A stretch of 63,865 bases of DNA, counting the filler, from Hausera hauseri (taxonomy: Eukaryota), in NCBI GenBank assembly GCA_046269625.1. It is 11 parts of 11 records of this genome, joined end to end, with 100 filler letters (N's around TTAATTAATTAA, not from the genome) between each part and the next. Parts side by side here need not be neighbours in the genome. Positions count along the whole stretch, not along the records: positions 33,392 to 38,411 come from JBJURY010359487.1; 10 more parts are not named here. One strand, given 5' to 3'. Within the stretch, counting starts at the first letter, position 1; each line of letters begins with the position of its first letter. The notes under the pieces are model-generated. The model was not told where the DNA came from, did not search any database, and worked only from the letters and a program-made list of their open reading frames with translations. Of the stretch, positions 17,901-56,149 are shown piece by piece. A program made the translations under genes and the position numbers.

Positions 17901-20340
17901 ATTCTTTTAATCAGGACTTTTTGACTTCTAATTTTATCTGTGATTTTTATCTGACTCGTTGAATGTATTTATTTGTCAGTGAAGCAAATTGGTGTCAGAA
18001 GAAACAAAAACATCTACCATTAGAAAACGATACCGATTTATGGAATTGCAAATTAAAGAAAAAGTTTTTGATTCAATTGTTACTTGGACTAAGTACATTT
18101 TATCAGTTAGATAATCGTTTGTTTCGGATTTATTGTTCTGCATACGACCTAATGTATTAACCGAAAAGGATATTGACAGTTCTGGAAATAAAAAGAATTC
18201 TAAATCTATTGAAGAAAATGAAATTATAAAATATTCTTTCAACGTATACAAAAATCCAAAACATCAAGACGATCTAGACCAAATACTTGAACGATTGAAT
18301 CAAGTTAATATGGATACGTCCATTCCTCATGCAACGTCTGTAAAAAATCTTATCTCGATCGGGTTTTGAATTTTAAGAAAGATGCAATAAATGTTACTCC
18401 CGACATAATAAATTTACACGACGAATCCAATTCCTCTACATCCGGACGAATGTCCGCTGTCGATCCAGTTATAAACATTGAGGTGGCTTCAACCTATTCT
18501 AAAATTAATCAGAAATCAAAAGCAATAGGTGTGCAATATAAAAACAGCAATGACGTTCTTCGTGAATCATCGACGATTTACATGTCTCGTTGTAAGAAAA
18601 GTAAAATGCCTACATTTGAAAAATCGTTACAGACTGGTAGCAGTCAGACTGATTCTCCAGGAAATGACAATTTCAATTAGTATCAACAATCGAAACAACC
18701 GGATATTACACTGAATGAACTCTTACTATCAAAGTCCGAGCATGCGATTGGTGATAAGGAAGTCGAAAACCAAAATCCTGGAAAAATTATAATTAATACA
18801 AATTTCCCGCGTGTTACAGTAGAGCGAAATACAATCCATATATCTAATTACATCAAGTTAGTATCATCCAAAAATCCTACCCCAAGCATTGCGGTTACTC
18901 AATTATGGACATCTAATCCTCCAACTTTAAAGGAAAAGCAGGTACTAAATCCATTCTTAACACTAATTGATGGTGAAATTATAATAAAAGGAAATTCAAA
19001 ATTAACATATATGTTAAACACCTTCATTCAGGGTACATGGTCATCAATGTATTACATTAATTTTATATTTGCATAAATCATACCCTAAAAAATGATAAGC
19101 ACAAAATTTAATGTCCACGGTACTACCTTCAATCTAACAATTTATAAATTTTATACTGAAGGTACTTTGATCATCCATATATTTAAAAACAATGATGTCT
19201 ATCTAAAGTTCATTAGACAACCTTGCATGAAATATCCATCGTTTTTACAAAAAAATACAACTCATTTAATCAAATATCCACATACAAATTCATTTCTCTC
19301 TACCATTTATAAATTATTTACTGGAAATTGCCGCAAATCATATATCGAAATAAATTTTGTATGTTCATTGGAGTTACATTATGGTTATTTTATTAAAGCC
19401 CAAAAATTTATTATCGTAACTGAAAAGAGAGTGTATTTACGTGGATATTACACTTTTCTATATTGTTAATTGCAACACCCTAATAGTTCGATTCCAACAA
19501 CACTGTACACTTGGACTGTAATTTCACCTAATTACATTTAAACGAATGGCTCAATTCTTCATATTGACAAATCAACTAAGGGTGCCGCTTATCCGTTTGT
19601 CTGCAGAGTACATATACAGGGTGTTACATTCGATCATAATTACAACTTTACAGTATTGGATAAAAATAGCATATTCATCGAACCTCACATAACATTGAAT
19701 AGAACTGTGTTTGTGACAAATGATGATGTGGATGTTTTCTGCCGTTTATATCCTGTTGCAATTAAATTATTTATTACCGATGCAATTCCGGATATATTTA
19801 TTAGAAACCCACCTAATTTCCGAACTCGATATACACAAATATTGATCCACCTAACATCTTATACACCATCATGTGACATTCAGTTTTACTGCACGAAAAT
19901 AATCACCAACGAGAACATAATAAAGTACTTCAATATATCCATAATAGATGTAAAAATCTGACGATTTCTTTTATACCTCACATTTATATATTTTATTTAT
20001 ATGATCCGCACATCTATCTGTCAAAAACATTACAAAAACATTTTGATAAATGTCCAGCAATATACGTCAGAAAACATGTTCAGGACATTAATGAATTATT
20101 CTCTGTTGCTTTTATTCAACTGACTGACGTCTATTTAGAATTCAGACAAAAATTTCTATATAATACTCATCTACAAAAGTAACATTTCTCCAGGCAGAAC
20201 TACCAACTCGTATGAAAATATCAATTAATCAGTTCCTCGCTTCTTTAATTGATTTAAATTATAATTCAAAAAATTTGGCAGTAAATAAAGCTACAATCGT
20301 TTCCGATATGGTAAAGAGTATCGTGCATGACAATTCATAA

Positions 20341-21696
20341 AATATTATCTTTTCATCATTTATAAATGATTTTGTTGAGGGACCGAGCGTGCTCGCCCCC
20401 GTTGCGCCGCGTCCCCTTTCTTTTTTCATTTTTTCTAATCATAAACATATACACACATTAATAGTTACACACAAACAAACATCTCATATTCTTTATACTG
20501 AATTGTACTCTTATTTCGGTTTTACTGATTTTTACCTTATGCACAACGGTCTTATTCTGCAACCTTACGATTCTCTTCCATCCTTTGAACACGAGAAATA
20601 TTCCATCACTCTCACTGTCCATTTTCGCATCCGTGGTGGATCAGACCTTGATCCTTCTACCGAACACTTAAAAAAAACTAGATCAGGCCGTCGTCCTGTC
20701 GATCCTACATCAAACGTATGTCCCAATCTCCCATGCACGGATTTCTTTTTAGACCAGACGAATTCTAGTCATACCTGGCTGCAGTTACACTTGCAATGAC
20801 TAAAAGCCAATCACATTACAGATCCCTTTCTGCGGGCTAACAGTTTACTGGTTTTACTCCCAGACAACATCAAACAGCAGATAAGTAACTTGGCTGACAT
20901 ACTCTCCTCTTCAAGCCCGTATGATATGCTGTACGAATCGGTTCTACATATCACCGATCCTTCAATCGACAGCATAATCCAGAAGTACTTTAACGAATAC
21001 GCCATTGGAAATCAAAAACCGTCAGATTTCCTTAAAACGGCCATCTCACAACTGAGCTCTTTAGGCGTGACTCTGACGAACAATGCTGATCTTCTTCGTC
21101 GGTACTTTCTCTCATCTCTGCCAACCTCCATCCGAGCGTTGCTTACTGTAGTAGATGACTCTACTGCCATCGAAAAGCTCGTTTTATTGTCAGACAAAAG
21201 CTTCGATATTCTGCAGTCTAATAACTCGCAGCCTGTAGCCGCAGCAACTGCTCACATACTGCTAGACAACACGTTATTTGCACAACAACTAAACATGATG
21301 CAGAAACAATTCGATACCCTACAACAAGCAATTTCTGCAATCACTGCCCAACTCAGCGACTTATCTGTGCCCCGAGGGAGCGAAAATCGCATTTCCTGCG
21401 ATCGCAGTTTGTCTAGGCACTCTTTTCGTTCTAAACCCAGAGAGGGTAAAATGGCATGTTTCTATCACAACAAATTCGACAGAGATGCACGAAAATGTGT
21501 TTTAGGTTGTCGATTCTACGATGCACGATATTCCGTAGACAATCCAACCTGCATCTATCACTCAAAGTACCAGTCCAAGGCTATGTCATGCGTGCCAGGA
21601 TGTAAATATTATAAAAGAAATTCTTCTCCATCTTCTTCGCCTCCGCGCACTCACCATTCCTCCTCTTTCTACCAACAAGTTTCAAAAAACCAATAA
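20341..21696 (+). CDS. Ty3/gypsy Gag with an N-terminal ubiquitin-like domain (20416-20640) and two C-terminal CxxH..C..C fingers; one premature TGA at 20797
   Basis: ORFs 20389-20799 and 20890-21696 share a frame. The Ubl ends FRIRGG. Gag motifs GNQKPSDFL and LLRRYFLSSLP; fingers CFYHNKF..C..GC and CIYHSKY..C..GC. Confidence 0.85.
21684..21690 (+). promoter_or_regulatory. Putative -1 ribosomal frameshift heptamer A_AAA_AAC at the gag/pol junction
   Basis: TCA AAA AAC CAA TAA ends gag and pol is in the -1 frame. The same heptamer (TCA AAA AAC TAA) occurs at 26245-26251 in the related element. Confidence 0.75.
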
Positions 21697-23889: not shown

Positions 23890-26800
23890 ACCTCAAGAAA
23901 TTCAATTTTTCATACACGGATTACGCTTCACAAATGCGTATCGTTTCTCGACACACAAAAACAAAGATGCGTTAAGGCAATGCTACAACAGCTCGCCACT
24001 TCATATCAGGACGACATTTTTTCATACAACGCAAACATTTTGTGTCCATGGAATAGTCCCATTTAGGATTATTTTCCTACAAACAATGCGAAACTACTAG
24101 CAATCCCCAAACTAAAAGGTGGCGCTGACGCTAATGCGTCCGACAAAATGCCGAAAGTGCTTTAGCGGCACCAGCCAAACCACCCAAATTAGCGTGCCCA
24201 ATCTTCTTCATAGGTTGTAGAGGAACGCCATTTAAGTAGTTCAATGTGTTTGAAACATGGGCTACTCAATGCAACATCACCGACCAACTAAACAAGGCTT
24301 TAACATTAATACAATACCTGCTGCCAACAATGCTCGCAGCAATAACGGATTTGGACACGTTACTGTCAGATGAGAAGCAGCTTGACAAAATCAAAGCAGC
24401 CATATCCAAAGCATATCTGCCATCCCAGCACGACAAATTCAACCTGGTCTTCACCAAGCGGCAGACAAGGAACATGAAACCCTCTGTGTTATTAATTGTA
24501 CGTGAGGAAATGAATATTTCTGTCTTTTATTGTCTATCCGACATACCAAAAAAGAAATACAAATTCCAAAAATGTAAATACAACAACGCTTTTATAAAAA
24601 ACTTATTTTAATTTCAAATTCTACAAAATTGATATTCTATAATTTTTTATTTTACAATTATTTTGTTGTCACACATTATACGTTGATAATTAAAGTTGCA
24701 TTTCAAACTATTAGCTAAACTACAAGATAGTGAATCCGTTTATGAGTCAATCGGTTGTCTTCATCTCGGTCTTTTCTCTTGTTGTGTTTCTTCTGTGACA
24801 TTTTAGTGAGATAAATATTTGATAATTCATATGAGTCATTGCATTCTGAAGGGTTAATTGCTTGAGACATTGATGAAGAAATATTATTTGAGGTATTATG
24901 GTGGGGATTCTGATAATGATCAAGTTCTCTGTTTTGCGATTTTGGAATTAATGATTGAAGTTCTGTGAGGTCGGCGTTTGAGGAATTATTTGAGCAACGC
25001 TCAACCAGATCAACGGACAAACAATTCTTATGATCAAACAAAAGAGACAGAATAGTTTGCAAACACAAATTTCACGAACACAATTTTCGTAAGATTGACT
25101 GTGAAACATTTGGAACCATGTTGCGAAATAGGCGTTTTATGCTTTTGAAATTAACCTGATTATAGCTGATGAGTTTATATTGGATCTGCCGGAAATATCC
25201 TAGAAGATGTTTCATAGAATTATGTGACATTAAGGTGGTTGTCGATTAGGTTAGAGAGAGACTATCACACCGTAATTGCCAATTTTCAAATGAGATCTTA
25301 TTCTTTTTGATTAACAATTTGAGGGACGTGCCGGATGTTTCGAGCATTTGATTTAGTTGGCTTGGTTCCGGTTTCCTTTAGATAAATTTAAGTGACGGCT
25401 AAGACTTATATGCTTAACGGATATTATGCCTATTGTTATTGTTTAATTGGCACATTTTCCTGGATCTTGTCAGCCAAATGTTCAAGGGAATGGAGTAGGT
25501 ATTGTACGGTGATCATTACCAAATACCGACGTTGATGACTAAAGGTCTCCAATTATTCTGAAAAACGTTGGCGAATCAGGAATCAACCATTCCGGAAGAT
25601 AATTCCACGTTTGTGTTAAAATGTGTAAAGTTCAAATCCGTAATGACTGCCGAATTTGGTACAGTTAAAATATGGTGGCGCCCAAGCCCGCGGCACCACA
25701 CTCTGCTCTGCTCCAAAAGTTACGCTCAGACTTTATCACTGTTGAGTTGGACCTTCAGAACAACTAGAAAATACTACGACGCTACTTTCTCAGTAGTTTG
25801 TCAAACGAAATATAAGCGGCACTTGTACTATTACCATCCGATACCACATTGAACGATATGGCACAAAAGCCGATAAAATATATGAGTGCACTAAAGGTAC
25901 CCTAGAATCCGCACTAACGGAAAATATCAACGCCGTCACCGCGGTCCAGCAAAATTAGCTGGACACAATTATCTCTGCCATGTAGGAACTTGTAACGCAC
26001 AAGAATCTGCCAGTTAGGGACAAACCGTCATCTCGGCACCAATCTCCCAAAAGAAAGAAAAGCAAATTTTCAAAAAGTTGCCATTTTCACACACGATTTA
26101 GTGAGTCCACCTATAAATGTTATCATGGTTTCCAATTCGACAAACCATCCGCAAATATAAAATGCAAGACAACTGCACTTATTACAATCACTTCGGTCCA
26201 GATGCAAACACCTGTCAACCAGGCTGCAAATTTTACAAACCGTCAAAAAACTAAATGGAACCAGACGACCAACGGAACGTCGACTGGAAACCCCATTATC
26301 ACAACTGTCGTATAAAAATAGAAAACGTATTGTCAACAGTATTTTCATTCTCAAGGCGGAGGTACTATTTTCTGACATGTCGAAACCACTAGATTTTCTA
26401 ACTGGCTCTGATACAGCTTTATATTTAATACCTAGCGCATACCCTAGACCTACGTTGGTCGCGCATGCATTGCTCAAAGGCTGCCAATGGCAGGCAAATA
26501 GCGACCACACGTACATTGTACTTACAATTTCATCTACAAGGCCGGCCATACTCTTGGTCATTCATATTGGCCGACATCATGCAAACAATCATTGGTTCTG
26601 ACTTTCTAGATCACTACGATCTCACAGTTGATTGCCAAAATTAACAACTCGCCAGCGGGAGCAATCCATTACCTCTATCCGCATTCACCCTAAACATAAA
26701 CGCGGTCACGGGCATAAAAATTGCAAATTCCGTTGACATCGCACCATTTCTCCAAGCGCAAGACCCTAAATTGTTGAAACGCTCAACACAGAAAGAGGTA

Positions 26801-27655: not shown

Positions 27656-28228
27656 ATGGTAGAGACGCGATCTACTAACATGGCGATCAATGCTTCAAGA
27701 GACTTCTTCGAGAAGAAATTGATGCCCAAAGAATTCCAGAAAGGTGACAACGTGCAAACCTTTATTGGAAAATGCCAGAGATACTCTGACTTTATAAAGA
27801 TGTCGGAGTCGGATCGGGAAACGGCGGTCCTGTGCCTATTGGCGGACGAAGCATAGGAAAAATACCATCTGGTGAGCCAGAAGGTGAAAGGGTACCAAAA
27901 CCAGTAGAGAAGGGCCTTTGCAAAACCCACAACGCTGTGCCGAGATCTGCGGGACGCATTAGACTACAGAATGAATGGGGCAGAACCGGACGTTTACTTC
28001 AACAAAATCGAATAGCTGGTGAAGGGCATCCTTAGCCACAAAATAACAGCGAAAGCTCTAACAGAGGAATTGATGATCCACTGTTGCGATATTCCGGAAA
28101 TGAGAAAGGAAATCTACCACAGTGACGAAAAAACGTCAAACAAATCAAAGAGAAATACGGAAAGTCCACGAAGTGGCAACAAAGACGGAAGAAATAAACA
28201 CAGTCAGAGAATACACTAGAGAGGGTCG
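27656..28228 (+). mobile_element. Degenerate gag-like ORF of a different LTR element, nested after the truncated RT
   Basis: MVETRS...PKEFQKGDNVQTFIGKCQRY...; helical Gag-like sequence with in-frame stops, starting shortly after the preceding RT breaks off near 27430-27458. Confidence 0.55.
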
Positions 28229-29099: not shown

Positions 29100-30958
29100 T
29101 ATACTATACGGGGAATCTTTTCCGTCTTTCCTTTGTAGAATCTTCCTTTTCCATCGTGCGTCCTGGTTTGCTAGAAAACAATTTGCTACTGCAGGTATGA
29201 CAGCTATTAGAATTTTTCATCAGCATCCTACTGCTGCATGTATTCCATAGGCCTTACTTAGTGCTGTAAATACTGTACGTATAGCACTAATGATAAAATA
29301 TATGGCTAGAAAACCGGACGCTGCTTGGCCAAAATATAAAAATTTTCTTTACATCTTTTCCATTAGGTTTTCCCATTGCGGTGATTCTTCACCATCCCAC
29401 ATTACTCTCCTGGTCAATTCTATTATAACTCTGTCTCTGTTGAGGAAACAACAGCATTAGTCGGTAATCTTCTACATTTTGTTGTGTGTAGATTCCTCCT
29501 TGTGATATTCCTGTTAACGGTTCGAACTTTTGATTCCTGTGCAAATTAATCAAACTTAGTGTCTCCTTATTGGACACGGGTTCTCTTTTTGGTATTCTAA
29601 TCCATTTTTCGTTGTCAATCTTAAACATTGGCGACGTATTGAAGGTACAATTGTATAGTGGAGTAGGCTTCCATTAATATCTAATAGTATTCTAATCACG
29701 GGCATACAATATCTTGCTTCTGCATGATAAATTACAGGCAACTCCATTGTACATTTGTCTACTGGCCTAATTGATACTTCTACCTTCTTACATTCTATTG
29801 TTATCAGTACTTCGCCCATCACTCTTCTGATAATCCCATCGTCAAAGGGCATTACTGGCGCTACCATGTCCAGATTCGTTATTACCAATGTTATTTTGTT
29901 ACGCATTATTTCGTAGTTCAGCTTGCATTCATTCATTATTATCTCTCGATATAAGCCTCTTATCTCTTTCCTTGCATAATTGGTTAGAAAATCAATCTTA
30001 TTATCAAAATATTGTGCTAACTTTATATATTTCTTATCCATTTTAGTTTTTGCTCCAGGTATTTCTTTTGACGATAAGAAAAAACCTTATAGTTGGTTCT
30101 CGATATTTCTTCACTGCATTTATTTACTACTCCAGTGATTTTGAATCGCATCATGTCTTCTGTATTTTCTGAATATACAATTGTAACCACTTCCGTCATC
30201 TTGACTTCCTTTGTTCTTTCTTTATATGTCGCTATCTCTTTATTCGCCGTTTTTTCCACTGTCTTGTTAAACTTTCCTTCTTTAATAACGTCAGTTGGCA
30301 TTTACTGGCAGAGGTTTCCCATGTCATCATCGGCTCTCCAGTATCGTATTCACCGTTATCATACTCACATTCACCCATAGTCGTCATCACTTTCGTTTGA
30401 GTCAAATAGTCCTTCATATACTTTCAACTGGATCTGATAATCTTCTATGGTTACCGTTTTAGGTGCGATGGTACCTCCAACGTCGTAATCCACTCCTTTA
30501 CAAGTGCCTTCCATCATTTTGTCTATCCTTCCTGCCCTAAAAATTCTGGTGTATTTTATTCTATTTCAAACTGCCGGTATATGCGCGTTTTGAATAGTTA
30601 TTATGCCAGTTTTAAAAGCATCCTGGCATTCTGCTCGTGATATTATTATCGGTACGAAAGGTGTTGTGGGCTTAATTATGGCCAAATTTCCAGAGTAAGA
30701 GGCACAATTAAAAAGGAAGAATGATTTCTTTACATAACATTCTCTAATTTTCGCTTTTATGAATTCCGATTCTTGATATACCCAGTAGGTAAGACCACTT
30801 GTCGTTGTTAGCTGTTCCGAGTCGGCTTCTGGACATTTTTCTAAATCAACTAGAGAATACTTTTGTCCTTCGCTAGGTTTAGAGCAATCATAAGCTACTA
30901 TACCCACAGCTTTTGGCATTAATAATGACGTTATTAGGAGAATCTGAAGAATCTCCAT
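29100..30958 (-). pseudogene. Chuvirus (Jingchuvirales)-like class III fusion glycoprotein in env position, degenerate
   Basis: Signal peptide MEILQILLITSLLMPKAVG then IVAYDC...YSLVDLEKC; GEVLITIECKKVEV...CTMELPV; GGIYTQQNVEDYRLMLLFP; TM region FLYFGQAASGFLAIYFII...AYGIHAAVG. Confidence 0.8.
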
Positions 30959-32122
30959 TATTGACATACATGTTATGCCTGGTCTACAGCTGTTTGGCTG
31001 CATCGCCGTTGGCGTATCTATTAATCTTCCTCGTTCCCCTGACCTCACTATATTTTTCATTAGGCTGGTCAGCCATGCTCCTCTACATTGAACTCAATTT
31101 CCTAACGTGTCTTTCAAAATCTTTACGGCTGTCTTTATATTTCGCTCAATTTCTTCTAGATTTTGAGTCTGGTGATTAATTACTATTATTTTGTAGAGGA
31201 GATAGGATATATCCGTTTGAGCTTTCTCTCGCGTGATTCCAGTTACAAACATTTTCTCTAAAATATTTAATTAATGCAATTCATTTATTCTTTCTTCATC
31301 TAGATTCTCATAAAACTGCCTACTTATTCGCAGCATACAATTACGTAATTTTGTGAATAATTCGTCTGGGATTATTACCTGCATATCAATTGAGGCAAAT
31401 GATGTATGTAACTTAGCCAGTAGAGTTCTTAGTAATGGGTCTATATTCCTCTATTCGGGAGTACCATTTGTTCCTACTAACAATAAGCGACATACCATTT
31501 CTTAGTTTATGTCTTTCTTATTACGAATGTCACTTATCTTCGTTCCTTTTGGCTTACCTCTTCTCTTAGCTTCTGTCTGGACTGTAATGTTTTGAGTATC
31601 GCCTGCGGAATTTTCTTCTGTTCCCTGTGGTTCTATTTCCCTTAAGATATTATCCACTTTTGCCTGTGCTCTCGCCTCTGGATATATTTCGGTTATAGCT
31701 ATCGGGTTGTAGTTCTCGTTTCTACATCCAATTGTCAATAATTTCTCATAGCTATGTAGTGCCCTTCCATAATAATCTAATCCCTAAGGACTTCCTTAAT
31801 AAAATGGTTCCAACTCCTCTATCTATTCTCGTAGAGTTTGTATGTCATATGTTTTGTTCATCCTGATGACCCTCATATCTTGGTTTCCTTCTCTTACCGT
31901 TATCCTGTTAGTTTCATTTCTTCCTTTCTCATCTTCGGCAGTTTTGGCTAAAACTGTCCTTGCTATTTCTTTTACAGGACTAGTATCTTGGGCTAGTAAG
32001 ACCAATTGTGGTAAAATTTCATTCATCCTTTCTGCTGTTACTTTGTTAGTAATTACTTTCAACATCGCATCAGTCATTTTATCTACATCGATTATACTAT
32101 TGGGATCGACAATCATTACTGC

Positions 32123-33291
32123 TTAAATAATACCGTCTTCTTCCCGATCTACACCTGGATTCTTTATTACTTGATCTAATATAGCTTCATCAAATATTGG
32201 TATAGCTTGAGCTTCGTCCTTGTCAAATGAGGGTGTACTGAGGTTACTCTTCTTTCTTCCTGTTTTCTTTTCCTTTCCTACCTCTTCCCTCTCTGTTGAT
32301 GTTTCTCTTGATTCAACATCTATGTCGATTATTTTATTATTACCTTTCTTTCTTTCTTTATAAGATACTTGTTTCTCCGGTTGATCTCCTATCATATAAA
32401 TATTATTTTCTTTCAGTCTGTGCTGATGTCTTCTATAATCTTTCAATTCTATTTCTAATTGCTTCTTCATGCGTTGGGATAGTGTATCATTTATATAATT
32501 AACACTTTCTTTCTTTTTATCCTTTTTCTTAACTTCGTGTTCACTAACACTATCGTCCATTTCGTATTCTTTATCGGATGATTTATTTGACGTGGCTGAT
32601 GTGTGATCTTTCTTATGTTGTTTATTTTTATTACTTGATTTCGAGGAGTCTCCTCTACGTTATCTGCATGATTTCGCTATATGTCCGTATTTATTACAAT
32701 TAAAATATTTCAGTCGTTCTTCGGAATCTATGTTCGGTAATGCCCTTCTATTTTTTTTTATTTCCTCTTATAACTTGTCTTTTCTCCATCGTTTCGTAAA
32801 TTAAATTTTACTTTCTTTTCTGCGTCTGACTCGGCTTCTGTGGCTGACGTTTGTAAATGGCTTCTATTTCTTTCATAACGTTTGGTACTTTTGAGTATTA
32901 TTGTTTCTTCTTTTATCATAACCATTATTGCTGCTTTTAGACTTATTCCACCTATATAATTCCTCATCTCGTTCGGCTTTTCGCGCCTTTCTTATTGCTT
33001 CTTGAAACGTAAGTGGATTTGCTTGTAAAATTATCGTCCTTAGCCTTTCTTCTAATCCATATTGGAATTGGGCTAACAATGCGTCAGGATATGCTCTCGC
33101 TGCAAGTTTTTCCAATGCACTGACAAAGTCCTGGACTGTTTCATCTTTACGTTGCTTTCTTATGAACTCCTCGATTCTCCCCTTTCCAGAGGGATCTATT
33201 AAAAACTTCTGAGACAGTCTTTCTTTAATTCCCTTCCTGTCCTTCTTGTCCTCATCTGACATTTGGAAATATATCACGAGAGCAGTCCCTT
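32123..33291 (-). mobile_element. Degenerate Ty3/gypsy-type gag upstream of the env-like gene
   Basis: RKQRKDETVQDFVSALEKLAARAYP...QFQYGL...PLTFQEAIRKA; degenerate CCHC knuckle YFNCNKYGHIAKSC at about 32665-32706. Confidence 0.8.
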
Positions 33292-33391: not shown

Positions 33392-34682
33392 CATTCCGCC
33401 TTCTCAAACGTCACGTAACATGGCCATCAATGAGGTCTGATGTACAGAGTTGGGTTAGGCAATGCGTACCTTGCCAAAAATTCAAAGTTGCTAAATATCT
33501 TAAACCGCCATTATTCCATTTTCCATGTACATCCCGTTTTGAGTCAGTTCACATAGATATCGTCGGCCCATTACCTTCTGATAACGGCCACCAATTCATT
33601 TTAACAATGATGGACCGCGCGTCTCGTTGGCCTGAAGCCGTCCCTTTGCGCTCCATCAACACAGACTCGATTGCCGACGCATTCATAAGGATTTGGATTA
33701 GCCGTTTCGGTTCACCTCGCCATATAATTACAGACCAAGGTTCCCAATTTGAATCGAACCTATTCAAATCTCTAGTTAATCGACTGGGCATAAATCACAT
33801 ACACACAACTCCATATCATCCCCAGTCGAACGGCTTATTGGAACGCTTTCATCGCACTCTGAAGATCTCGTTAAAAATTCTCTCCGAAACTCATAAGAAT
33901 TGAACAACCATTTTCCCTTTTGTTTTACTCGGTTGGCGCAACACGCCGTCTACTACTACCGGTTGCGAACCCCCTGAAGCACTTTTCGGTACCACAATTC
34001 GCGCACTTTTTGAACTCACCGATTTGGGCAACACACCAACTGACGAAACAATTAAGTCTGAACAAAGTCACTTCGTTCAATTAAGCCAAGATTCTTTCTG
34101 CAAAATAGTACATGGTGACAAATCATACTTACTGACTCGCTATTTAATGCAAAGTTCGTGTGGATAAAAAATTCTTCACCTTTCGGATTTTTAGCACACT
34201 ATTTAAGAACATTGAAAGTTCTCAATATTCTCACATTTACAATACTCAAAAACGATAAAGAACAAAATGTGCACATATCTAACGTAAAACCTGCATTTTT
34301 CGTTAATGACACACCGGATCCAACAACTACCTCTACATATACCTTCATTGACTCCTTCAATCCTTCTTCTGTTCTACCTCCACGACAACCTGCTACTCCG
34401 GAACACGCATAAATACAAAAAACTACGTTAAACGACATACCGACTAGTTCTCAAGCTACTGACACGTCAAATCAAAATTTAAGTTCCTCCCAACCAACTC
34501 AGCAAACAATTGAACAACACGGTAAAAAACAACAGTCCCTTTCAGAAAATACAGCAGATAACAAAATATCGACAAAATTCAAAGTCTTGTCCATACAAAG
34601 ACTCTACAGTTCGCCTACACATCTCTGTTTTGTTTCCTTACATTTTTTACATTAACAGTGTCATTTTCGTAACGGGGAGTAG
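33392..34682 (+). mobile_element. Ty3/gypsy integrase remnant (same family as contig 1) ending in a PPT
   Basis: Close protein match to 2355-3300 (VHIDIVGPLP, ITDQGSQFES, PYHPQSNGLLERFHRT); GGGGAGTAG at 34674-34682. Confidence 0.93.
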
Positions 34683-34712
34683 TGTATTGTCGCGGACTCG
34701 GGCGTCACCACA
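34683..34712 (+). mobile_element. 5' terminus of the 3' LTR (30-nt hairpin-like unit)
   Basis: TGTATTGTCGCGGACTCGGGCGTCACCACA directly after the PPT; homologous to the end of the solo-LTR-like insertion. Confidence 0.7.
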
Positions 34713-34842
34713 ATCCACAATATTACGAAGTTATCAAAGAACCCATCGATTTACGGAAAATTGCTCGGCGAATAAAATTATCGGTATATTTGACGATTAA
34801 TGATGTTGAAAGGGATTTCCTACTCATGATAAAAAATGCCAC
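34710..34842 (+). pseudogene. Bromodomain fragment (polybromo-like)
   Basis: PQYYEVIKEPIDLRKIARRIKLSVYLTINDVERDFLLMIKNA fits the ZA loop/helix A/helix B consensus and stops right after KNA. Confidence 0.8.
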
Positions 34843-36189
34843 CGAAACCATTATGCAAACCCATGACCGAAAGTGCAACATAAACGTTTTTTCCAAGATG
34901 GCCGAAGAGAACATACTGATAAAATTGCTTTTACTCCATCACTTTCATATGCCGAAAAATTGCTTTTAAGGAAGCATCGTAACAATCAACTTGTAGCAGA
35001 AGATATGAAGTTTATTTTCAGCCGGCTTGCAAATAGTAATAGTAAAGCAATGGAAGACCAAAAATTGATGGACACATTTATTGATGCAGATAAGTCATTA
35101 CAGTACAATTCAACAGTGGCTGCTGTTGACATGTGCCACCTAAATATTTCAGCAATTTCAGATCTTTCGTTACAAATGTCTGATATGTCAAATTTATCTG
35201 AAAATAATAATAACTCAACTTCTGACTTTAACACTGAAGATATTACTGAGCCATTTGCGACACCAAATGGGCACCATCATATACAGGAGGATACGACAAA
35301 AGCCTCAGTAAAAGATGTTCAACAAACAAATGTGGATAAAGATAATATAGTCCGTAAATTAGAAATCCATGATGATATTCACACCAATGAAAGAAAGCAG
35401 CATAAGGAAGAAAACCGTATTAAGTCTCTAAACTCTGGACGAATGTTTAACGATCGTCCTCATTCTAGTCGTCGAATGTCTGCCAGAAGTAGTAGAGGCG
35501 GAAAAATAACTACACAACCTTCAACACTTCTGAATATTTTGGCAGATTTTAGCACATCTTCCATATTAATTTCAGTCAAAAAATTCATCCAATTTTATAT
35601 CTAATGAAAAGCCAAGATCAACAAGTACTAATTCGTCAATATCATAAAAATGAGGTATAATTTTTACAAATTACCTCCAAATTCATGGAAGCCTACTCAA
35701 GCATGGGCTGATAGTTCAATTTTGTCAAACGATGAAATGATCTCTGGAAATTATGATTTCAGAATGGAATATGTAAATAATTGATTGCTATTGAATGTAA
35801 AATTTGAATAAAGTTTCCCGTTTATTAAATCTGGTTATTTCTTCAATGGAATTTATTATATACAAATTTCTTGCTAATGTTAAGAATAAAGGAATGGTGT
35901 CAGAATATCAACTATCAAAAATGCAGACTGATCGGATTATATTTCATCAGTACGATAAAAGTGATAATTTGGAATATTTTATAAATTGGAAATCGGTGGA
36001 TTATCGATCTTTGATTCCGGAATCGGCAGAAAGTGCTTTTCAACCACTGTCCGAACGAGCTATAGCAACCTACAAGGACGGTCTTCGTTACCGAACGTTT
36101 CCTGATACAGAAAATCCATTTTTCGACAAAGTCCGATATTCGAACCGATCACGTTAGACTATTTATTTGGTTCTCCGGATTACAATTTA

Positions 36190-38016
36190 TTTTTACCCGA
36201 CATCATCGGATGTAGTGGATTTGTAAAATCAGACGTAAAAAATTTTTTATTCCAAAAATTATCAGCACAACTGACGTATTCCGATGGAACGTTAAATTAT
36301 GTTACCGACGTCTCAGCAAACGGTACACTTTCATTTCCAATGTACAACAACGGTAATTTTATTTTCGGCCATGTTTTTCCAAGTAATTATTCGGTTCATT
36401 TTAAATCGGAAACGCACGATGGAAAGGAAATTGAATTGCTTGATACTGTTTACGACTTGAGGGTGTTTAATGATAACATCATTATTAAGGATTCTTTTAT
36501 AATTCGAGGCTATCCGGTATTTGGTGACGTAAAATTTCAATCAGATCGCGTTCAAGATGTTTACACATATTTATTTGCCAGACATTAAAAGAAAGAAATT
36601 TGACTATGACAAATATCGATGTTTACAATCGGAAAGTGTCGACATTTCTGTTTATAGTTATGATTACATTTGTAAAACGGTAATAAATCTAAATGGCGAA
36701 TTCATGTTTCCACTGTTACCCGGTGAAAAATATTTCATTTTGTCTGTTTATTCAACAAATCTGTCATCATTCGACATTGAATCGACGAAACATGAATTCG
36801 AAATCACGAGCAATTCCACTGATCTCAGATCGGTATTTACCGTTACAGGATATTCCGTTTATGGAAAGCCAATTACAAACGAGTCAATTCCAATGCGGAA
36901 ATTTACATCAATGGAAATCTCGTGACGAAAACATCCAACCCTGGAATGTTTGACATTTGCGGTATGAAGAAAGGTAATCACGAATTTCTCGTTGTTGTTG
37001 ATCGGTACATTTTTAACACACTGACAATGTCTTTTGATCCGAGAGATCCAGATTTAGGATCATTCTATCCTGACAAAATTGCCATTTGTGAATCAGTCAT
37101 TATTCATTCTGCACAGTCCAACATAAAATTATTTGGTGATGAATTTAACGGACTAAAATTGTCCATTGCCATTGTCAACAGTAGCAAACCATTTAGTCTG
37201 ACAGCTTTAAAGTTAAAATCAAGTAAGAAAATAAAATTCGATAATAAAAATACCATTTTGGATCAATTCTGTTTCTATACAGAACAAGGCCATAGTTTAA
37301 TTCGATCATTGGCGGATTCGTCATTCGGCAATTTTAATTTGGCCCCAAGTAAAATGCCGATAAGTAAAAATGACGATAGCTCAAAAATGTTCATTGATTC
37401 ATTACAAATCCACAGAAGATTATCGAAAATCTGTTTACCGAATGTCGGTAAATATGAACTGAAAATCGAGACGTGTCAACTAGTTGATAATGATATTCAA
37501 TTTGTCGATACGATCGAATTGTGTCCGTATCAATTTGATTATAATAATGGCGAATGTCATTTGAAAATTAATAATAAACAATTTCATGTGCGAGTCGATT
37601 TGACATTCGTCGGTAATTCGTCAGTGAGTGATATGGAGAAATCGGATATCTGAGGATTGGTACGAATTGGTGAATTGGATCCTGTGGAAATTAATGTTGA
37701 ATGGATGACGAATTTGACAGGTCAATTCCAATTCTGGATATTTCCGAATATTCCGGCAGAAATTTCGTTGAAGTCGTCGATATTTTTATTTACACCAAAT
37801 AAATTACCATTTGATGTTGCTGTGGATACGATAAAATGTATATCGGTTGGTGGTAAATTTGTATTGGAGAAGGGGTCATTTATTGAAGGATATATTGAAC
37901 AACGTGTGGAAAATGTTACTATCGACGTTTGTAGGAAGTCTCATTTTAATGATTATATTTGTATCGTTATGAAATTGCACCAAGAACAATTGGAATACGT
38001 TCTTCAAGGCAAATAG
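36190..38016 (+). pseudogene. NOMO: Divergent Nodal modulator (NOMO)-like copy, frameshifted and internally deleted
   Basis: DIIGCSGFVKSDV...GTLNYVTD...FPMYNNGNF resembles NOMO1 VVGCGGFVKSDV...GTLKYQTD...IPLYDKGDF; NGEFMFPLLPG...VFTVTGYSVYGK resembles DGSFSFYSLPSG...VFHVMGFSVTGR (recalled sequence). Confidence 0.8.
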
Positions 38017-38039
38017 TCTATTAATACTCTTTCCAGCCA

Positions 38040-38345
38040 CTATTAAATCACTGCTCCCAAATCTTTACGAAATCTTCCAAATCGCAGATCCATACGAAAC
38101 ACTATTTAACGCCGTTCTTAAACTCACTGAGCCTTCTCTGAATAACATTATCCAAAAATATTTCAATGATAATTTGACAGGAAACCAGAAACCCTCAGAA
38201 ATTTTACAAACATCTTTAACCCAATTAAACAAGTTAGGGGTAAACCAGACAAACAATACCGACTTATTGCGTATATATTTCCTTCAATAATTACCGAAAG
38301 AAATACGCGCTTTACTAACCGTAGTCGAAGATACCGCTGTTAGAA
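38040..38345 (+). mobile_element. Gag fragment of the Ubl-Gag family
   Basis: DPYETLFNAVLKLTEPSLNNIIQKYFND...GNQKPSE...NNTDLLRIYFL aligns with 20890-21160. Confidence 0.85.
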
Positions 38346-38714
38346 AAGACCATAAAAATTTCAAATTTTTTCGAGGAAATACATTTTTGGTAAGTTGAGC
38401 TAGCCAAAAAANNNNNNNNNNNNNNNNNNNNNNNNNNNNNNNNNNNNNNNNNNNNTTAATTAATTAANNNNNNNNNNNNNNNNNNNNNNNNNNNNNNNNN
38501 NNNNNNNNNNNCCTATGTGTTTTCCTGTTTCCCCAAGGCCGTATCCGAAGTCAGTTCTGTTATCCGAAATGATCACTTCTGTGGCAGATTATTATTATTA
38601 TTATTTTTTTTTTGCCAACTCAAGTTTAATCTTCCGCGGCTTGAAACCGGCAAAAGTGTCTAGTGGTGATCCTAGCGGTGTTATATTTATAACCCACACA
38701 CTAATATATGAAAA

Positions 38715-42395: not shown

Positions 42396-42619
42396 GAATT
42401 ATGGTAGGCTTAACTTTTTGAAGCTTCACGGTAGCATGCGTCATAAGTTAGTGTGGGACACGGTAACTGGCATGGTAAGATAGTGTGGGACACCGTAGCA
42501 TGCGTGTCTTGTCTTGTGATAAAACCCAGAAGAATTGAAAATGTTCGAACCGTTTACCACATAGGCTGTTCCTAAGATGTGACAAGAAAAAAATTTCGGA
42601 AACTTATTTCTGAATATAA

Positions 42620-44040
42620 AAGTTGCCGACATAAAAATTTGTTAACATGAAAACAATTTTGCCTATAAAAAGTCGATGTCATGAAAAATTACCTACATGA
42701 AAAGTTGATGACATGAAAATCTGCCAAAACGAAAAATAATCAACATGAAAAATTGCTGAAAAAAAGTTTCCAACATGAAAAGTTGTCGACACAAAAAGTT
42801 TCCATTATAAAATGTTATCGACATGAAAAGTTGTCATGAAAAATTACCAACATGAAAAGTTGTTGTCATGAAAAATTGTCAACATGAAAAGTTGATGTCA
42901 TGAAAAGTTGCCAATATGAAAAGTTGTCGACATGAAAAGATGCCAAAGTGAAATGTCGACCTGAACAGATGCCAATATGAAAAAATGACCGACATGGAAA
43001 GTTGCCGACATAAAAAATTGGTAACATGAAAAGTTGATGTCACGAAAAATTATCATCACGAAACGTCAGCAAGAAAAATTGCAACAAGTAAAATTGTCGA
43101 AATGAAACAAATGCTAACATGAGAAGTAGCTGACATGACAAGTTACAAAAATAAAAAAATTGCCAACATGAAAAGTTTCAAATATGAAATGTTGTCGACA
43201 TGAACATTTGTCGACATGAAAAAATGGACGATGTGAAAAGTTGTCGATATTAAATATGACAGATATAATAAGTTATCGACATGAAAAATATGGCTGACAC
43301 AAAAAAATTGATAACTGACATGACAAAAAATGGCTGACATGTAAAGTTATCCACATGGAAAGAAAAATGGCCGACATGACCAAAAAATATGGCCGTAATA
43401 AAAAGCTTTCGATGTTAAAAAACGACCCAAATGACAAAAAAAAATCAGACATTACAAATGGCTGACATGAATAATTGTCAACATGGAAATAAAGTGCCAT
43501 CATGAAAAAAATGTCCGACATAAAAACATGACCAACATGACAAAAAATGGCGGACATGAAGTTATCGACATAAAGAAAAGACGATATAAAAATGGCCGTC
43601 ATGACAAAAAATGGCTGACAAAAAGTTATCGACATGAAACAATGGCCGACATGATAAAAAGAAAAAAAATGGCCAACATGGCAAAACATGTCTGACGTAA
43701 AAAGTTATCGATATGAAAGAAAAATAGCCGAAATGACAAATAGAAACAAAATGGCCGATATAAATTTCTGAAATGAAAAGTTATCGACATAAAAGAAAAT
43801 TGACATATGAAAATATGGCCGACAAGACAAAAGAAATGTCTAATATGAAGTTATCGATATGAAAAAGTGGCCGACACAACAAAAAACTTGGCCGATATGC
43901 CCAATAGAATGGTCGACCTGACAAGTTATCGACATTAAAAAATGGTGGACATGAAAAAATGGAGGACATGATACAAATTGTCCGACATGACCAAAAAATG
44001 GCCGACATGAAAAGTTATGACCTGAAAAATGGTTGACATA
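42620..44040. repeat. Degenerate ~20-bp minisatellite (AAAAGTTGTCGACATG / AAAATGGCCGACATG)
   Basis: Dozens of diverged GACATGAAAA-core units in one orientation. Confidence 0.9.
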
Positions 44041-44470: not shown

Positions 44471-45444
44471 GACATATACAACAACCACACCTCACCACAC
44501 AACACCCACTGTCTGAACTAACAGAGCAAAAAAAAAAAAAAAATCAATAACCCTCGTAATTGTCACACTGAACTCGCATGCAACAGCTGGCGTCCATGAA
44601 GTGTGTGTAAAAAATGTCTTTACAAAACAGGAGTCCAAATATTCTTCGAAAAAATGGGCGAGTGCTGCCGCCAAAATCTGGGGGAGGGGGGGGGAGGCAG
44701 CCCATGCTAACATCCCCATGCTTTTCCATCCCATTCAATCCTCCAGTATAGCAACCACCGAGGGGCAAACAGCTGATGACACCTCAACATCACGATGATG
44801 CTCCTCCTCAATGATACTCCTCCGGACTCCCTCTATAATCTACTGTTTTCTAACACTACAGTCCTGCAAAACATAAGAAACCCATCTCTGAGGATACGGT
44901 GATGACTGCTAAATTCTATATCTACAACTCTACCAAGACATCAGTGCGAAGAAGAAGAAAAACCAACCTAGACATGGGGGTGTTGGAAGATCTTGGTTAC
45001 TAATGACTGTGGATCAGAGACAATTACTTACACAAAAATTGAATTACATCATTAAAAAAATAGTGAGGTTGCATAAAAGTCATAACCTTAAAAGACGACA
45101 TCTGTCCGTACCCAACCCAAGTATTTCCTTATATTCGTTTGCACCACCCTGCTCCATCGTATTTTGCTATATGGGCTATATTAACATTTCCATTGGTTCC
45201 CTTGCTCCCCCACACCCGCCCAATAATTTTTAATTAACAACACAAAAATTGTAATTACATCATCAAACATTTTTTAAATGCTGACGTTGCATAAAAACAC
45301 CTTACTATCCTCATCAATGATGAGTATTGTCTCCCCTTAATATTTTGCTATATGGGTTATATTAGCTCCTCACTGTTAATTAACTTCTATATGAGCCATT
45401 GCTCCTCACCTTGAAATACTACCTGTTTTGTAATTAGTATACTA

Positions 45445-46000
45445 CTGAGGGGGCGGGAGCACTTATCGAAACCAGCAACTGATAAAACTAGCAATACTGT
45501 CATGTCAGCATACAAACCGAAAAACAGTAATAACTACAATTCCGAAGTCAGAGCAATTATTGTGGCAGCTGAGAAACTCTCAAGATCTAAGTTTCGCTCT
45601 CATCCTGTAGTATTTCTCACAGATGCAAAATCGACCTTAGAAGCCCTTGAAAGTAGAAAAATGACAGAGCTACAAGACACACTGGCCAAAATTAGCAGTC
45701 ATCAACGAAAAACTATACAATGGATCCCATCCCACTGTGAAATTCCAGGAAATGAGAAAGCTGATACTCTGGCCAAAGGCGGTACTCTAATGAATGGAGA
45801 GGTGGAGCAACCAAACATCCCAATAACGTATGATAAAGATACACAAGAAATCACCTTCAGAATTGCCAGGTGCCTATCATATGTTGGATAGAAATGAACA
45901 AGTCACAATATTTCGCCATAGAACAGGACACAACTGACTCCGGAGATACATGTACACACAAAAAGAAGAATATGCATTGGCGGAACGCCTATGTTCACAG
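45445..46000 (+). mobile_element. I/Nimb-group LINE 3' fragment with RNase H
   Basis: SNNYNSEVRAI, VVFLTDAKSTLEAL, IQWIPSHCEIPGNEKADTLAK, followed by RTGHNRLRRYM. Confidence 0.85.
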
Positions 46001-48065: not shown

Positions 48066-48541
48066 ATGATAATGAATGATGTAAAGATTATCTTAACAGA
48101 CGAAAATGCCTCTGTACCGAGACGTGTTACAGCAAATAGTTCAGGCTACGATATGTTTTCCAATGCCAATACGACAATTGGATTCGATTGGCGATTCCAC
48201 CCGGTTAATACGGCTAACTTTTATCGAAAAGCGGACTGGCAAAGCTCGGGTTGACGGTTGTGGGTGGTGTCATTGATTCAGATTTTTGTGGTGAAATTAA
48301 GGTGTTGCTGGAAAACCAATTCGAGGAACCGTATGCTTTTTCGAAAGGCAGTGCAATCGCACAAATTGTTTTTCTTCGGTGTGAAGAAGCGGAATTCAGC
48401 GTAATGTCACCGGAACAATGGAGATTGTTTTGTGTCAGTGAAGCAACAACAACACGAAATGAACGCAAAGAATTTGGCTTTGGTGATATGGACAAAACCA
48501 CCATATGTTTAGTGATTTGTGATGATAAAAATAATAGTTAG
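48066..48541 (+). pseudogene. dut: Trimeric dUTPase (frameshifted)
   Basis: SSGYDMFS (motif 1), KSGLA (2), GGVIDSDFCGEIKVLL (3), AIAQIVF (4), ERKEFGFG (degenerate 5). Confidence 0.9.
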
Positions 48542-48578
48542 TTGTTTTGTTTGTTATATACAAAAATTATGTTAAGTA

Positions 48579-49070
48579 ATGGCGACAACATTTATAGATA
48601 TTGAAGCTTCCCAAGATGATAATTCCCGGTACCTGATAAAGGAATTATACGTTATGGACGTCGGTAACATTTTCAAACCGCTTGTTTACGTATTCAAGCT
48701 CGGCGTTATGTGGAATGACCTGACGGAAAAAGCGAAATTTACAAACGGATTTCTTTTTCGACATCTTAATGGACTTTATTGGTGTGAAGGCGATTCAATT
48801 TTCTGTGTGACGTGTATTATGGGAGAGATTTGTTACCGTTATGACATTGAAAATACAATATTTTACATTAACGATCAAATTGACGGACAAAAGTTTACAC
48901 AACTCCATTCACAGTTTCCCGAGTTGCGAATGACGACGTATTCAACATCGAACAGCTGGCTGGCGATGGTACCTGACAATATTAGATGTCCGTGTCGTGA
49001 TCATGGACCGCATTATGCGTACAAAAATGTCTTCGGCTTTGTATTGACTATATTTGATGCAAATAAATAA
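48579..49070 (+). CDS. Polinton-associated DEDD/DnaQ-like protein
   Basis: Intact 163-aa ORF with FIDIE...YLIKEL...W..L......N..L...LNGLYWCEG and a C-terminal CPCRDH, resembling small DnaQ-fold ORFs found next to pPolB. Confidence 0.55.
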   Translation: MATTFIDIEASQDDNSRYLIKELYVMDVGNIFKPLVYVFKLGVMWNDLTEKAKFTNGFLFRHLNGLYWCEGDSIFCVTCIMGEICYRYDIENTIFYINDQIDGQKFTQLHSQFPELRMTTYSTSNSWLAMVPDNIRCPCRDHGPHYAYKNVFGFVLTIFDANK

Positions 49071-49396
49071 ATGTGTTCCTGTTTCCTTTTTTTCTTTCCG
49101 TAAATAAGGTACGTCGTATTGGTCAGTTGAATAATTCAAAAACTATAAATGCGGGTAAGTTATAGTAATAATAATAATCATCATGGAAATAGTTAATTAA
49201 TTGAAACAATTGCAAAATTTTGATGGATTATCAATTTCGGACTTGATACGATGGTGGCAAGTACTTTATAGTAATCTGGTTGCGAGAGCAGCGGGTGATT
49301 TTGGATTTAAAGAAGATTTAGCGTCAATAGCATTGATGACAGCAAAGCATTGTAGCTCCATAGAAAATCTAATCATTGTGTTAAATTAAATGTACA

Positions 49397-52020
49397 TTAC
49401 CGATTTACATCCAGAAAGTCATTCAGCTCATCTGGTACCACGAGATCGACTGCCATCAGGTATCCGACTGAGCCTGCCATGTCTTCTCGTGGTAGGTTGA
49501 CAATTATGTCGTCCAGATCTTGTCTGTCGACTACCCATTCAAATGAAACGTACGGCAAGTGTTGCGAAATCGCCCAGCCGTACAAGTTATTAATATCAAT
49601 ATACAGCAGCGATGTGGTATCGGTAGCACTGACCTGATGCTTGTTGACAAATGTCATGTCGCCGCGAATACCCAAATCAAAGGGTCGGTACATTTCTGGA
49701 TCTTGCAGCAGCTCAGTGTCTCGATCCAGTGAAATTAGAGCTGACGCCAAACTCATTGACGGTATTGAATAAAAGTTGAGTGGCTCCAACCTATCTTCCA
49801 CTAGTGCTTTGGTTTGAAATGCTTGAAAAACGTTGGCTAATAAGTACACATCCAGTTTAAGATACTGGAGTATAATTCAACATGTTTCTACAGACCGGTT
49901 CTGTCCAAGATTCTTGTCCTCTCCGATATTCATCTTCTGCGGTACCTGAGCATCGCGGCGGTAATTTCTCTGCTGTCCGGAGTCGCTCATATGATGTTGC
50001 AAAATCATATGGAAATATGCCTTTGCTGCGTGCAATATGTGCAGGGAACTGAGTCAGTGCTATCGGTACACCTGGCAAGGCATTTACCAGCTTTGCCAAT
50101 GATTCATTGAGAAATTGCAATGAATCAAGGAAGCGTATCTGGAATTGGTTTACGCGTGCCGACAGCGGTAGGTTGGGATTATGGACAGTTTCCAGTGCGG
50201 AAAGCCGATAATAGCCCATTGGAGAATATGATGAAAGTCAACCCCGGAAATTATAAAAGAACATCGGCATGAATTGCACGCTGCTCCAAAGTATCGACCG
50301 GTGAAATGGTCGTGATCCGGTACGAGCCGTTCCTGTGCATCAAACGGTATTATTTTGTTGCACAGATAGCATTCATGGGTGACAGCGAAAAGCAACGGTT
50401 GATATTCGTCTGCCCAAATCAATGGCTTATTGCAATTGCTGCGATATCACGGCGCGATTTCCGTTTCCACTATGATTTCCAACTACTGCAGGAAATCACA
50501 TACACAGTTCCAACCATGGAAAACGTAACACTACGGTTTTTTGGCAGCTTTTATTGGTACTAGCAACGTACCGACGGCAATTGGAACGTGCTTTTGATCG
50601 TATACATTGTGCCGAGGTAGAATTGCTTCGATATCGGCATACACCACATATTCCGGACTGTCTATTTTAGACCAATCACTAAATCTGAGCTCCTTTTTGA
50701 CGGGCATGACGTACATTTTTGTCTTTGATGCGTTTTGCCTGCATAGCGTGACAACTTTCTCGCACGTTGTTTCCTATCTGAATCTATGCAGACATACAGG
50801 ACACCATTTGCATTGTATTCGCTTTTTGATGAATTGGTCATGCTCCATGTTCAACAGTCTATCCAGATTTGTCACTGCAACGTAATGAAAATTTTCGGCC
50901 TGCTCCAACAGCAACAAATTTACCGAGCGTCCATTCGGGATCCGATTGCGATAAATTATGTCCACATGAGGGTTCTTATAAATTTCTTCGTCTTCCGATA
51001 TTCCAACTGCTGTGTTGTACCGGGAAACGTTGATTGACAGCGTCAGATTAAGCCGTTCAAAAGCCGGAATGGTTTTCAGTTTCATCGGCATCCAGCATTC
51101 ATGAAATTGCAATTCGGAAAAATACTGCCGATACTGATTTGGACGATTTGCATGATATCTGTTCACTTCGTTGTACTTCAATACAGCCAGAATGCTGTAC
51201 AGAAAAAAGTATGCGCCGTCAGTATTTTGTCCATTCACTACCTCCAGGACTGCTTTAGAGATGCAGGTATGGGTATGAATTACCGTCCAGACAAATATAC
51301 TGTGTCACTCGACTTTATTATGATAAAGCCGAGTGTGACAATTTGTATAATTCTCCATCCACTACCCTTTTCGGTATAGTTGGCGATTTTCTCATCCAAC
51401 TTTTCGCCTACATCGGCAATAAAATTTTTGGAATACAGTACGGCTCGATGTGACTGATACCATTGTTTCCTGTCACCTTCAACATTTTCAAATTCTGCAA
51501 GTGCATAATATTTTACTTTGCAATTGTTGAGTTTGAATTTCTCCACCTCTAATTACAACCGGCTGCGCACACTGGACGGAACATGCCTCAGCTGTAGTTT
51601 TGTTGTTCCCAATATGTTTACTTTCACGTCCACGAACGATTTGTTTAGATCGTACTTTACAGTAATGGAAGGTTCCTGCTGTTGTATTTGCTCCTGTTGC
51701 TGCTTCTGTTCGGTACTGTTTCGGATGTATACGTCAAGACTTGTGGATGCTTGACGTTTCCTGCTTGTTGAGGGGATACTGGTTTTTCTTGTCGCCATCA
51801 CTATTTGCTTTTTGGACTGTTGAAACTTGTTCAAGTGGTCCTTGTGAGTGTTGTAGAATTGTTCGTAGTTGATTTCATCAACTATAGAACAATTTGGACA
51901 AACGTAGACCCGTTTACCGTACGCGGTTCTGGCGCCATAGTACTGCTCCATTACACTGGCAGCCATCAACGTCATGCACTCTACTACTACAGTATCGCGG
52001 GTATGTGAGTCAATGCACAA
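49397..52020 (-). mobile_element. Second Polinton/adintovirus-type pPolB, fragmented, C-terminus missing
   Basis: GSGWRI, FFLYSILA, HYVAVTNLDRLL, YVVYADIEAIL, DHDHFTGRYFGAACNSC, FLDSLQFL, KGIFPYDF, YIDINNLYGWAISQHLP. Confidence 0.92.
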
Positions 52021-53471: not shown

Positions 53472-53561
53472 TGTGGTGCCCACAGCGGCCGGTGCCATTT
53501 GGTCCATTTGGTCGGGCACGGCCGGGTGTCCGCTGCCGCAGCGTCGGGCCCGATCTTCCGC
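53472..53561 (+). mobile_element. LTR 5' terminus of the contig-1 gypsy family
   Basis: TGTGGTGCCCACAGCGGCCGGTGCC... aligns with 4304-4406. Confidence 0.8.
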
Positions 53562-55972: not shown

Positions 55973-56149
55973 ATATGAAAGAGTGGATTGAAGAATAAAA
56001 ACATGTATTCCCCAACAACCAGTATTTATAATGGCTGCTATGCATTGCAACTGTCCCACTCATCTTCAATCTCATTGGTTCATGCGTCTTCTTAAGCTGA
56101 GTTGCATTCTGCAGTCACGTTGCTTCAGTCTTGGCTAGGTTCTGGGGTC

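Follow-up and report, generated by a model that had tools for sequence, protein, structure and literature searches.

A decayed Ty3/Gypsy retrotransposon in the draft genome of Hausera hauseri passes from integrase through a polypurine tract (PPT) and 30 nt of long terminal repeat (LTR) directly into a partial bromodomain, which opens a 3.3-kb mosaic, all on one strand and apparently intron-less, that runs into gag sequence of the same element family. The arrangement of integrase, PPT, LTR head and bromodomain is a real feature of the locus. An initial annotation had described the order integrase, PPT, 30-nt terminus, half-bromodomain and N/S/D-rich frame, and this order was borne out by Pfam, tblastn and inspection of the sequence; the annotation stopped at the N/S/D-rich frame, however, and overlooked the multi-gene mosaic that continues into gag. 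The best reading of the locus, and on balance a probable one, is capture of mRNAs from several parent genes by reverse-transcriptase template switching, with one of the junctions falling 30 nt into the LTR. The window analysed, a stretch of 63,865 nt including filler, consists of 11 repeat-rich contigs, 4.2-9.4 kb in length, with an N-linker of 100 nt between each and the next, and the focal locus is contig 7 (JBJURY010359487.1; 5,020 nt, positions 33392-38411).

Contig 7 begins within the integrase, and the 5′ end of the element lies outside the contig. The integrase (33394-34307, plus strand) retains zinc finger, core and C-terminal part (Pfam rve, E=1.9e-14; Integrase_H2C2, E=1.8e-9) but is broken by one frameshift and one stop, with 1 stop counted in 33394-34137. 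By tblastn it is 75% identical over 248 aa to the intact Pol relatives P0152 and P0153, and at the nucleotide level it is 68% identical to 2397-3161, part of a sister copy in contig 1. The order reverse transcriptase, RNase H, integrase is found in that sister copy and in the closest Pol relatives (78-80% integrase identity); contig 7 holds the integrase only. The end of pol is marked by the motif LVHTKT (34586-34603, plus strand), with which P0152, P0153 and the contig-1 copy also end. From this motif to the purine tract at 34674-34682 (plus strand) there are 70 nt, and the contig-1 sister is equally laid out (motif at 4196-4213, tract at 4291-4300). Since the spacing agrees in the two copies, both the PPT and the following TG (34683) are judged authentic. 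The TG directly follows the tract (34674-34684), as expected for the start of a Ty3/Gypsy 3′ LTR. Read-through of Pol into the head was considered and rejected, as none of 6 motifs was found in the final 300 aa of 120 Pol relatives.

The head of the LTR (34683-34712, plus strand) is a GC-rich imperfect palindrome that starts with TG and ends with CA. The same terminus had been reported at 25700, followed by entirely different sequence. A second copy is present there and the interiors behind the two heads are indeed unrelated, but the copy lies on the minus strand (25700-25671) and matches at 23 of 30 positions rather than being identical; a search of the whole window allowing up to three mismatches returned the focal copy alone. 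With 200 shuffled versions of the 30-mer, no position of the window matched better than 22/30, and a local-alignment test of the same match was milder, with 3 of 200 shuffles equalling the score. After the head, GC content drops at the identical nucleotide in both copies, from 60 to 34% over the next 134 nt at the focal copy and from 70 to 36% at the other. A conserved hairpin in the head was not significant (98/200 and 12/200 shuffles fold equally well). The 7 nt that start one copy recur, exactly inverted, at the end of its counterpart. The copies differ at seven positions. In the reading frame shared with the downstream bromodomain, six of these are third codon positions, and five of the six changed codons are synonymous; tested post hoc for a concentration at any codon position, P is about 0.02. 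A putative role of the head as a coding leader, fused in frame with the cargo, would be in keeping with this pattern. Read in the same frame, the 9 aa of the head weakly resemble the bromodomain ZA loop (148 of 2000 shuffles as good), a likeness that could represent micro-similarity at the join.

The bromodomain piece (34713-34846, plus strand; 134 nt; Pfam E=5.2e-12) starts 30 nt past the PPT. It is of family-VIII type, closest to polybromo BD2, and cut at both ends, the matched residues at 34709-34846 covering Pfam model positions 25-70 of 84; the join with the head falls within a codon, at which relatives have Y, F or Q. Matches in the PDB were to polybromo-1 and BRG1. When compared with eight polybromo-type proteins, taken from the best 10 of 150 phmmer matches listed, BD2 was the top domain in six, tied in one and second in one, with identities of 45-57%. 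Polybromo (BD2) is by identity the probable parent, short of certain because BRG1 gives the best single-domain PDB score (39.8 bits, versus 36.9 for the best isolated polybromo domain). Word-indexed searches returned no parent for either the bromodomain or the NOMO piece described below, and a full phmmer search returned only distant relatives, with at most 59% identity among the matches listed. Past 34846 no continuation of the bromodomain was found in any of three frames (mean BLOSUM scores of -16, -27 and -16 against 39 bromodomain continuations), no GT stands directly behind the break, and the window holds no further polybromo piece. To judge from the sequence, the bromodomain is a fragment rather than an interrupted gene. 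The missing continuation and the lack of other polybromo pieces in the window also weaken the possibility, raised in the initial annotation, that the bromodomain is flanking target DNA. Its description there as intronless is uninformative at 134 nt, and better evidence comes from the 1.8-kb NOMO piece.

Behind the bromodomain lies a host-like, N/S/D-rich open frame of 245 aa (34867-35604, plus strand; frame 34867-35601). The stretch 34713-35604 is stop-depleted (0/100 simulations as low), and the 245-aa frame received no assignment from Pfam, PDB or Atlas. That this frame continues polybromo into a later bromodomain was rejected, eight polybromo-type proteins giving no tblastn match and the PDB none at E<=10. 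Next come a short and weak piece resembling the C-terminus of coatomer alpha (35656-35778, plus strand; 39 aa; Pfam COPI_C, E=0.009), for which all five PDB matches were to coatomer alpha, residues 906-944 (E 0.26-1.2), and a moderately supported, HP1-like piece of chromo or chromo-shadow type (35924-36115, plus strand; Pfam Chromo, E=3.5e-4; CBX1, E=0.043), whose Atlas score of 0.89 is taken as a lead only. The longest tile is the 5′ two-thirds of NOMO (nodal modulator; 36202-37953, plus strand), with four NOMO Pfam domains and matches to NOMO2 at E=4.5e-11 and 9.7e-10. It is colinear over 1.8 kb with NOMO2 residues 36-826 and carries frameshifts and a stop. At its two frame changes, 70 nt correspond to ∼18 NOMO2 reference residues and 20 nt to ∼10, and therefore no normal intron fits at either. 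About 40 nt further on, gag of the same element family sets in mid-gene (37994-38335, plus strand); this fragment is 54% identical to the contig-4 gag over 114 aa (E=2e-44). Both partners of the NOMO-gag join (37953/37994) are thus interrupted mid-gene. Each of the identified tiles (bromodomain, coatomer-like, chromo-type and NOMO) is partial, lies on the sense strand and has element sequence to either side; two are strong (bromodomain, NOMO), one moderate (chromo-type) and one weak (coatomer-like).

Elsewhere in the window, a PP1-like phosphatase occupies an intron-less open frame of 392 codons (56614-57792, plus strand; Metallophos, E=2.6e-39), which is a retrogene or else points to a host with few introns. 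To judge from the NOMO, polybromo-type and CHCC-gag sequences, this host is probably an animal whose proteins evolve fast. Because this gene is intron-less the host may be intron-poor, which counts against an RNA-level origin of the mosaic.

The second copy of the head begins a 1,214-nt segment with TG…CA ends (24487-25700, minus strand), identified by a scan for target site duplications (TSDs), which is bounded by a 5-bp TSD and lies within a gag. Of its two gag flanks, one matches residues 15-115 of another gag copy and the other resumes that copy in register at residue 116. A TSD-plus-TG match that close is expected with a frequency of ∼0.0035 by chance (20,000 random trials), and an AATAAA occurs ∼45 nt from the end of the segment. 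On these sequence features the segment is a solo LTR. Since this second copy begins a 1,214-nt element with a TSD, the head opens long LTRs, which weakens the earlier reservation that the LTR might be only 30 bp. The interior of the solo LTR had no host match in Pfam or PDB, and its stop depletion was not significant (27/100 simulations). A suspected resemblance of this interior to TSG101-UEV was dropped for want of support from either database.

The 3′ end and U5 of the focal LTR were sought by homology. Comparison with the solo LTR gave nothing beyond the head, local scores not exceeding those of shuffles and 9 of 50 simulations scoring as high in a global comparison; the other heads and the regions preceding gag likewise gave nothing above shuffles. 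The proposal that recognisable host-gene sequence occupies a U3 position is upheld insofar as host coding sequence begins 30 nt past the PPT, but the end of the LTR was not located by homology, and because of this we infer, rather than observe, that the bromodomain lies inside a replicating U3. A candidate marker of the LTR end, itself equivocal, is a tRNA-Leu-type primer binding site (PBS)-like 11-mer at 35895-35905 (plus strand). The motif occurs twice in the window, with 11 nt at 35895 and 12 nt at 17990 (null mean 0.017, 60 simulations), and both copies precede host-like coding pieces and then same-family gag. The 35895 motif lies 1,212 nt after the TG, versus a solo LTR length of 1,214 nt; a focal LTR of about 1.2 kb, ending near 35890, would fit this position, albeit equivocally. 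The 11-mer also equals the start of the Steamer PBS, which is tRNA-Leu-type according to the available text of PMC8905726. An end near 35890 is only a candidate, because there is no CA directly before the motif, which sits inside the chromo-type frame, because CsRn1 uses tRNA-Trp, and because another LTR-like head lies at ∼20373, so that the contig-4 copy at 17990 may not belong to its element.

The contig-4 region (17990-20400, plus strand) contains, in order, the PBS-like 12-mer, a BACK-domain piece (E=0.018), 2 kb of coding-like DNA, the GC-rich head at ∼20373 and a same-family gag-pol. The 2-kb stretch is strongly stop-depleted (0/100 simulations), and the region is possibly another cargo chain. 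Two heads of a second subfamily (4301-4420 and 53472-53590, plus strand) have ∼118 nt in common (88% over 81 nt), beyond which each is continued by a different, unrelated AT-rich sequence with ORF-like character; of the two, the 4301 head alone follows a PPT. Stop depletion on the sense strand behind these heads is mild (5/100 and 3/100 simulations, respectively), and in the contig-1 stretch behind the 4301 head such depletion is just as marked on the antisense strand (1/100, vs 5/100 for the sense strand). A search for a TSD of the 53472 head gave 4-bp, chance-level candidates only.

All retroelements of the window are old and broken. Apart from those described above, they include gag-like pieces at 27660-28228 (plus strand) and 33050-33290 (minus strand), which we take to be from a different LTR family, and an RNase H domain at 45415-45888 (plus strand; E=6e-7), followed at ∼46377 by a purine tract and a TG, which together mark another retroelement end. 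Remnants at 6819-11320 (plus strand) and 48218-50446, with DNA_pol_B_2, Endonuclease_7, aspartyl protease and dUTPase, are presumably Polinton-like; a reverse transcriptase piece lies among them at 7852-8349. Three broken pieces of the Monjiviricetes fusion glycoprotein family (29392-31093, minus strand; E to 7e-21) represent an endogenous viral or env-like gene. The window further contains an HTH domain of DNA-transposon type (55628-56059, minus strand), a degenerate tandem repeat array with a 16-nt unit (42600-44000), and a stretch at 58650-58800 (plus strand) that in our estimation resembles a chemosensory GPCR helix and for which Pfam gave no match.

Capture by template switching would have proceeded in a CsRn1-like Ty3/Gypsy element, since decayed, whose reverse transcriptase switched among co-packaged host mRNAs. 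Copying from 3′ to 5′, the enzyme would have left gag and then passed through NOMO, the chromo-type gene, coatomer alpha, the gene of the unassigned 245-aa frame and polybromo, rejoining the element's own RNA at the base of the short, GC-rich head, on its 3′ side. The TG end and the PPT alone, needed for integration and plus-strand priming, would have been retained, and the LTR from nt 31 on would have been replaced by the host mosaic. The mosaic would probably form the inside of an LTR of ∼1.2 kb, with further cargo and then gag behind it. Switching could have had a hot-spot at the base of the GC-rich head, created by pausing or by an RNA end there, although the folding of the head is not significant. 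The capture reading is supported by the common orientation and partiality of the tiles, the colinearity of NOMO, the mid-gene join with gag, the GC drop common to both heads and the 1,214-nt LTR that the second head opens. The heads at 4301 and 53472, which part ways after their common stretch and run into mildly stop-depleted sequence, point the same way. Against capture within an LTR stand the failure to find a 3′ end or U5 in common with the solo LTR, the solo LTR interior without a host match, the tRNA-Leu-type motif where CsRn1 has tRNA-Trp, and the equal stop depletion of the antisense strand in contig 1. A broader proposal is a Ty3/Gypsy lineage with cargo-bearing LTRs, in which the head and the TG and CA ends would be kept while the ∼1.2-kb interior would be an exchangeable mosaic of host mRNA pieces, attached at a hot-spot at the base of the head, copied to both ends of the element in each cycle and shed across the genome as solo LTRs; this we regard as possible but doubtful.

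A serious though unlikely rival to the capture reading is a history in which the downstream gag element made an internal, LTR-mediated retrocopy and a later DNA deletion or recombination took away most of the upstream element's LTR and brought the 30-nt stub adjacent to the retrocopy, no cargo-bearing LTR having replicated. Such events would suit elements that are all old and broken, and that are nested and adjacent in the window; the focal LTR end was not found, and ORF-rich, host-like DNA is also present upstream of the probable 5′ LTR head in contig 4. A random deletion, however, is unlikely to have stopped exactly where similarity and GC content end in an independent solo LTR, and the orientation is consistent throughout. 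It is improbable that the element ends in a mini-LTR of 30 nt, complete or internally deleted, and that the bromodomain is flanking target DNA, part of an older field of gene fragments. The TG…CA ends of the 30-mer, the 7-nt inverted repeat between the start and end of the copies and the position of the join inside a codon where relatives have Y/F/Q would be compatible with a mini-LTR, as would the TGT…ACA and TGT…ATA ends given for CsRn1-like LTRs in the available part of PMC2582038. Yet at 30 nt the second copy shows neither PPT nor PBS nor TSD, a TSD being found at 1,214 nt only; in contigs 1 and 10 a comparable self-complementary head forms an inner part of a longer common LTR; and the same text places CsRn1-like LTRs at 146-381 nt. 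An assembly or amplification chimera of the fragmented draft is very improbable despite the short (4-9 kb), repeat-rich contigs, given that the join lies 1.3 kb within its contig, that there are five or more joins with sense orientation in all, and that the tiles are decayed to a degree like that of the element.

Multi-parent capture by template switching has precedents. Partial retrocopies from several parents, flanked by discontinuous LTR elements and with the cargo within internal ORFs, have been described in Drosophila (Tan et al. 2016; PMC5131818, as far as its available text extends), where it is also noted that integrase needs 15-20-nt ends and that one family has a fixed switch site, and where maize Bs1 is cited as LTR-mediated gene capture. 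The Hausera mosaic is similar in that it comprises partial, sense-strand mRNA pieces, possibly from several parents, with a mid-gag junction, possibly a fixed switch site, and discontinuous element sequence on both sides (integrase and PPT upstream, mid-gag downstream). Its NOMO-gag join is of the standard kind in that text. The unusual join is the 5′ one: whereas the Drosophila cargo is described as replacing internal ORFs with the LTRs intact, the junction here lies 30 nt past the PPT and within the LTR.

The element family resembles the CsRn1/PwRn1/AgCR clade, as characterised in the accessible portion of PMC2582038, in its RT-RH-IN order, the PPT followed by TGT, the ACA/ATA ends and the CHCC-type gag of sister copies. 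The gag signature CX2HX9CX3C is exact at 21457 and 21550 and imperfect at 26079 and 26174, and these sister gags are tied to the focal contig by the gag piece at 37994-38335. CsRn1-type elements are reported in that portion to have a tRNA-Trp PBS, a 4-bp TSD and LTRs of 146-381 nt, in contrast to the 1,214-nt solo LTR with its 5-bp TSD; TG…CA ends are obtained only with the 5-bp TSD, 4-bp readings yielding non-CA ends. A search of the window for a tRNA-Trp PBS with up to one mismatch gave a single match, at 27870, which is not before a CHCC gag; the focal 5′ end lies outside the contig. Since the 5-bp TSD and 1.2-kb LTR depart from the reported features, membership of CsRn1 is not claimed despite the CHCC motifs. 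The PBS varies in related clades (PMC12471100, available text). The Steamer likeness is confined to the two candidate PBS motifs, of 11 nt at 35895 and of 12 nt at 17990; Steamer differs in having LTRs of ∼180 nt that start with TGTAACA, according to what is accessible of PMC8905726, and the gag here is of CHCC type.

Rfam returned 0 matches at gathering score in the window, and thus no 5S rRNA- or tRNA-derived sequence. Host small-RNA gene sequence reportedly occurs in LTRs, according to a preprint on Cassandra. The available text of PMC10886601 describes 5S rRNA or tRNA promoters in the LTRs of Cassandra, Helenus and Ajax TRIMs, which are short non-autonomous elements. The focal locus is like these in having host-derived sequence in an LTR, and unlike them, short and non-coding as they are described, in that its pieces are protein-coding and an integrase and pol end precede the PPT. 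Our literature search, in which coverage of subscription papers was limited, found no description of LTRs that contain fragments of protein-coding mRNAs.

LTR elements are already known to capture genes, the cargo lying between the LTRs in the published cases considered, and what would be unusual here is the junction inside the LTR, if the scraps travel with the repeat. Should the join be the product of a one-off deletion, the locus would be a clear multi-parent retrocopy, yet an ordinary one. If instead the cargo belongs to the LTR, it would be duplicated in each cycle and left behind as solo LTRs, allowing host domains to spread and be shuffled faster, and it may be a source of small RNAs against host genes. 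Cargo of this kind would raise the question of how an element whose U3 has been replaced is transcribed, and would explain why such families are missed by programs that search for LTR pairs.
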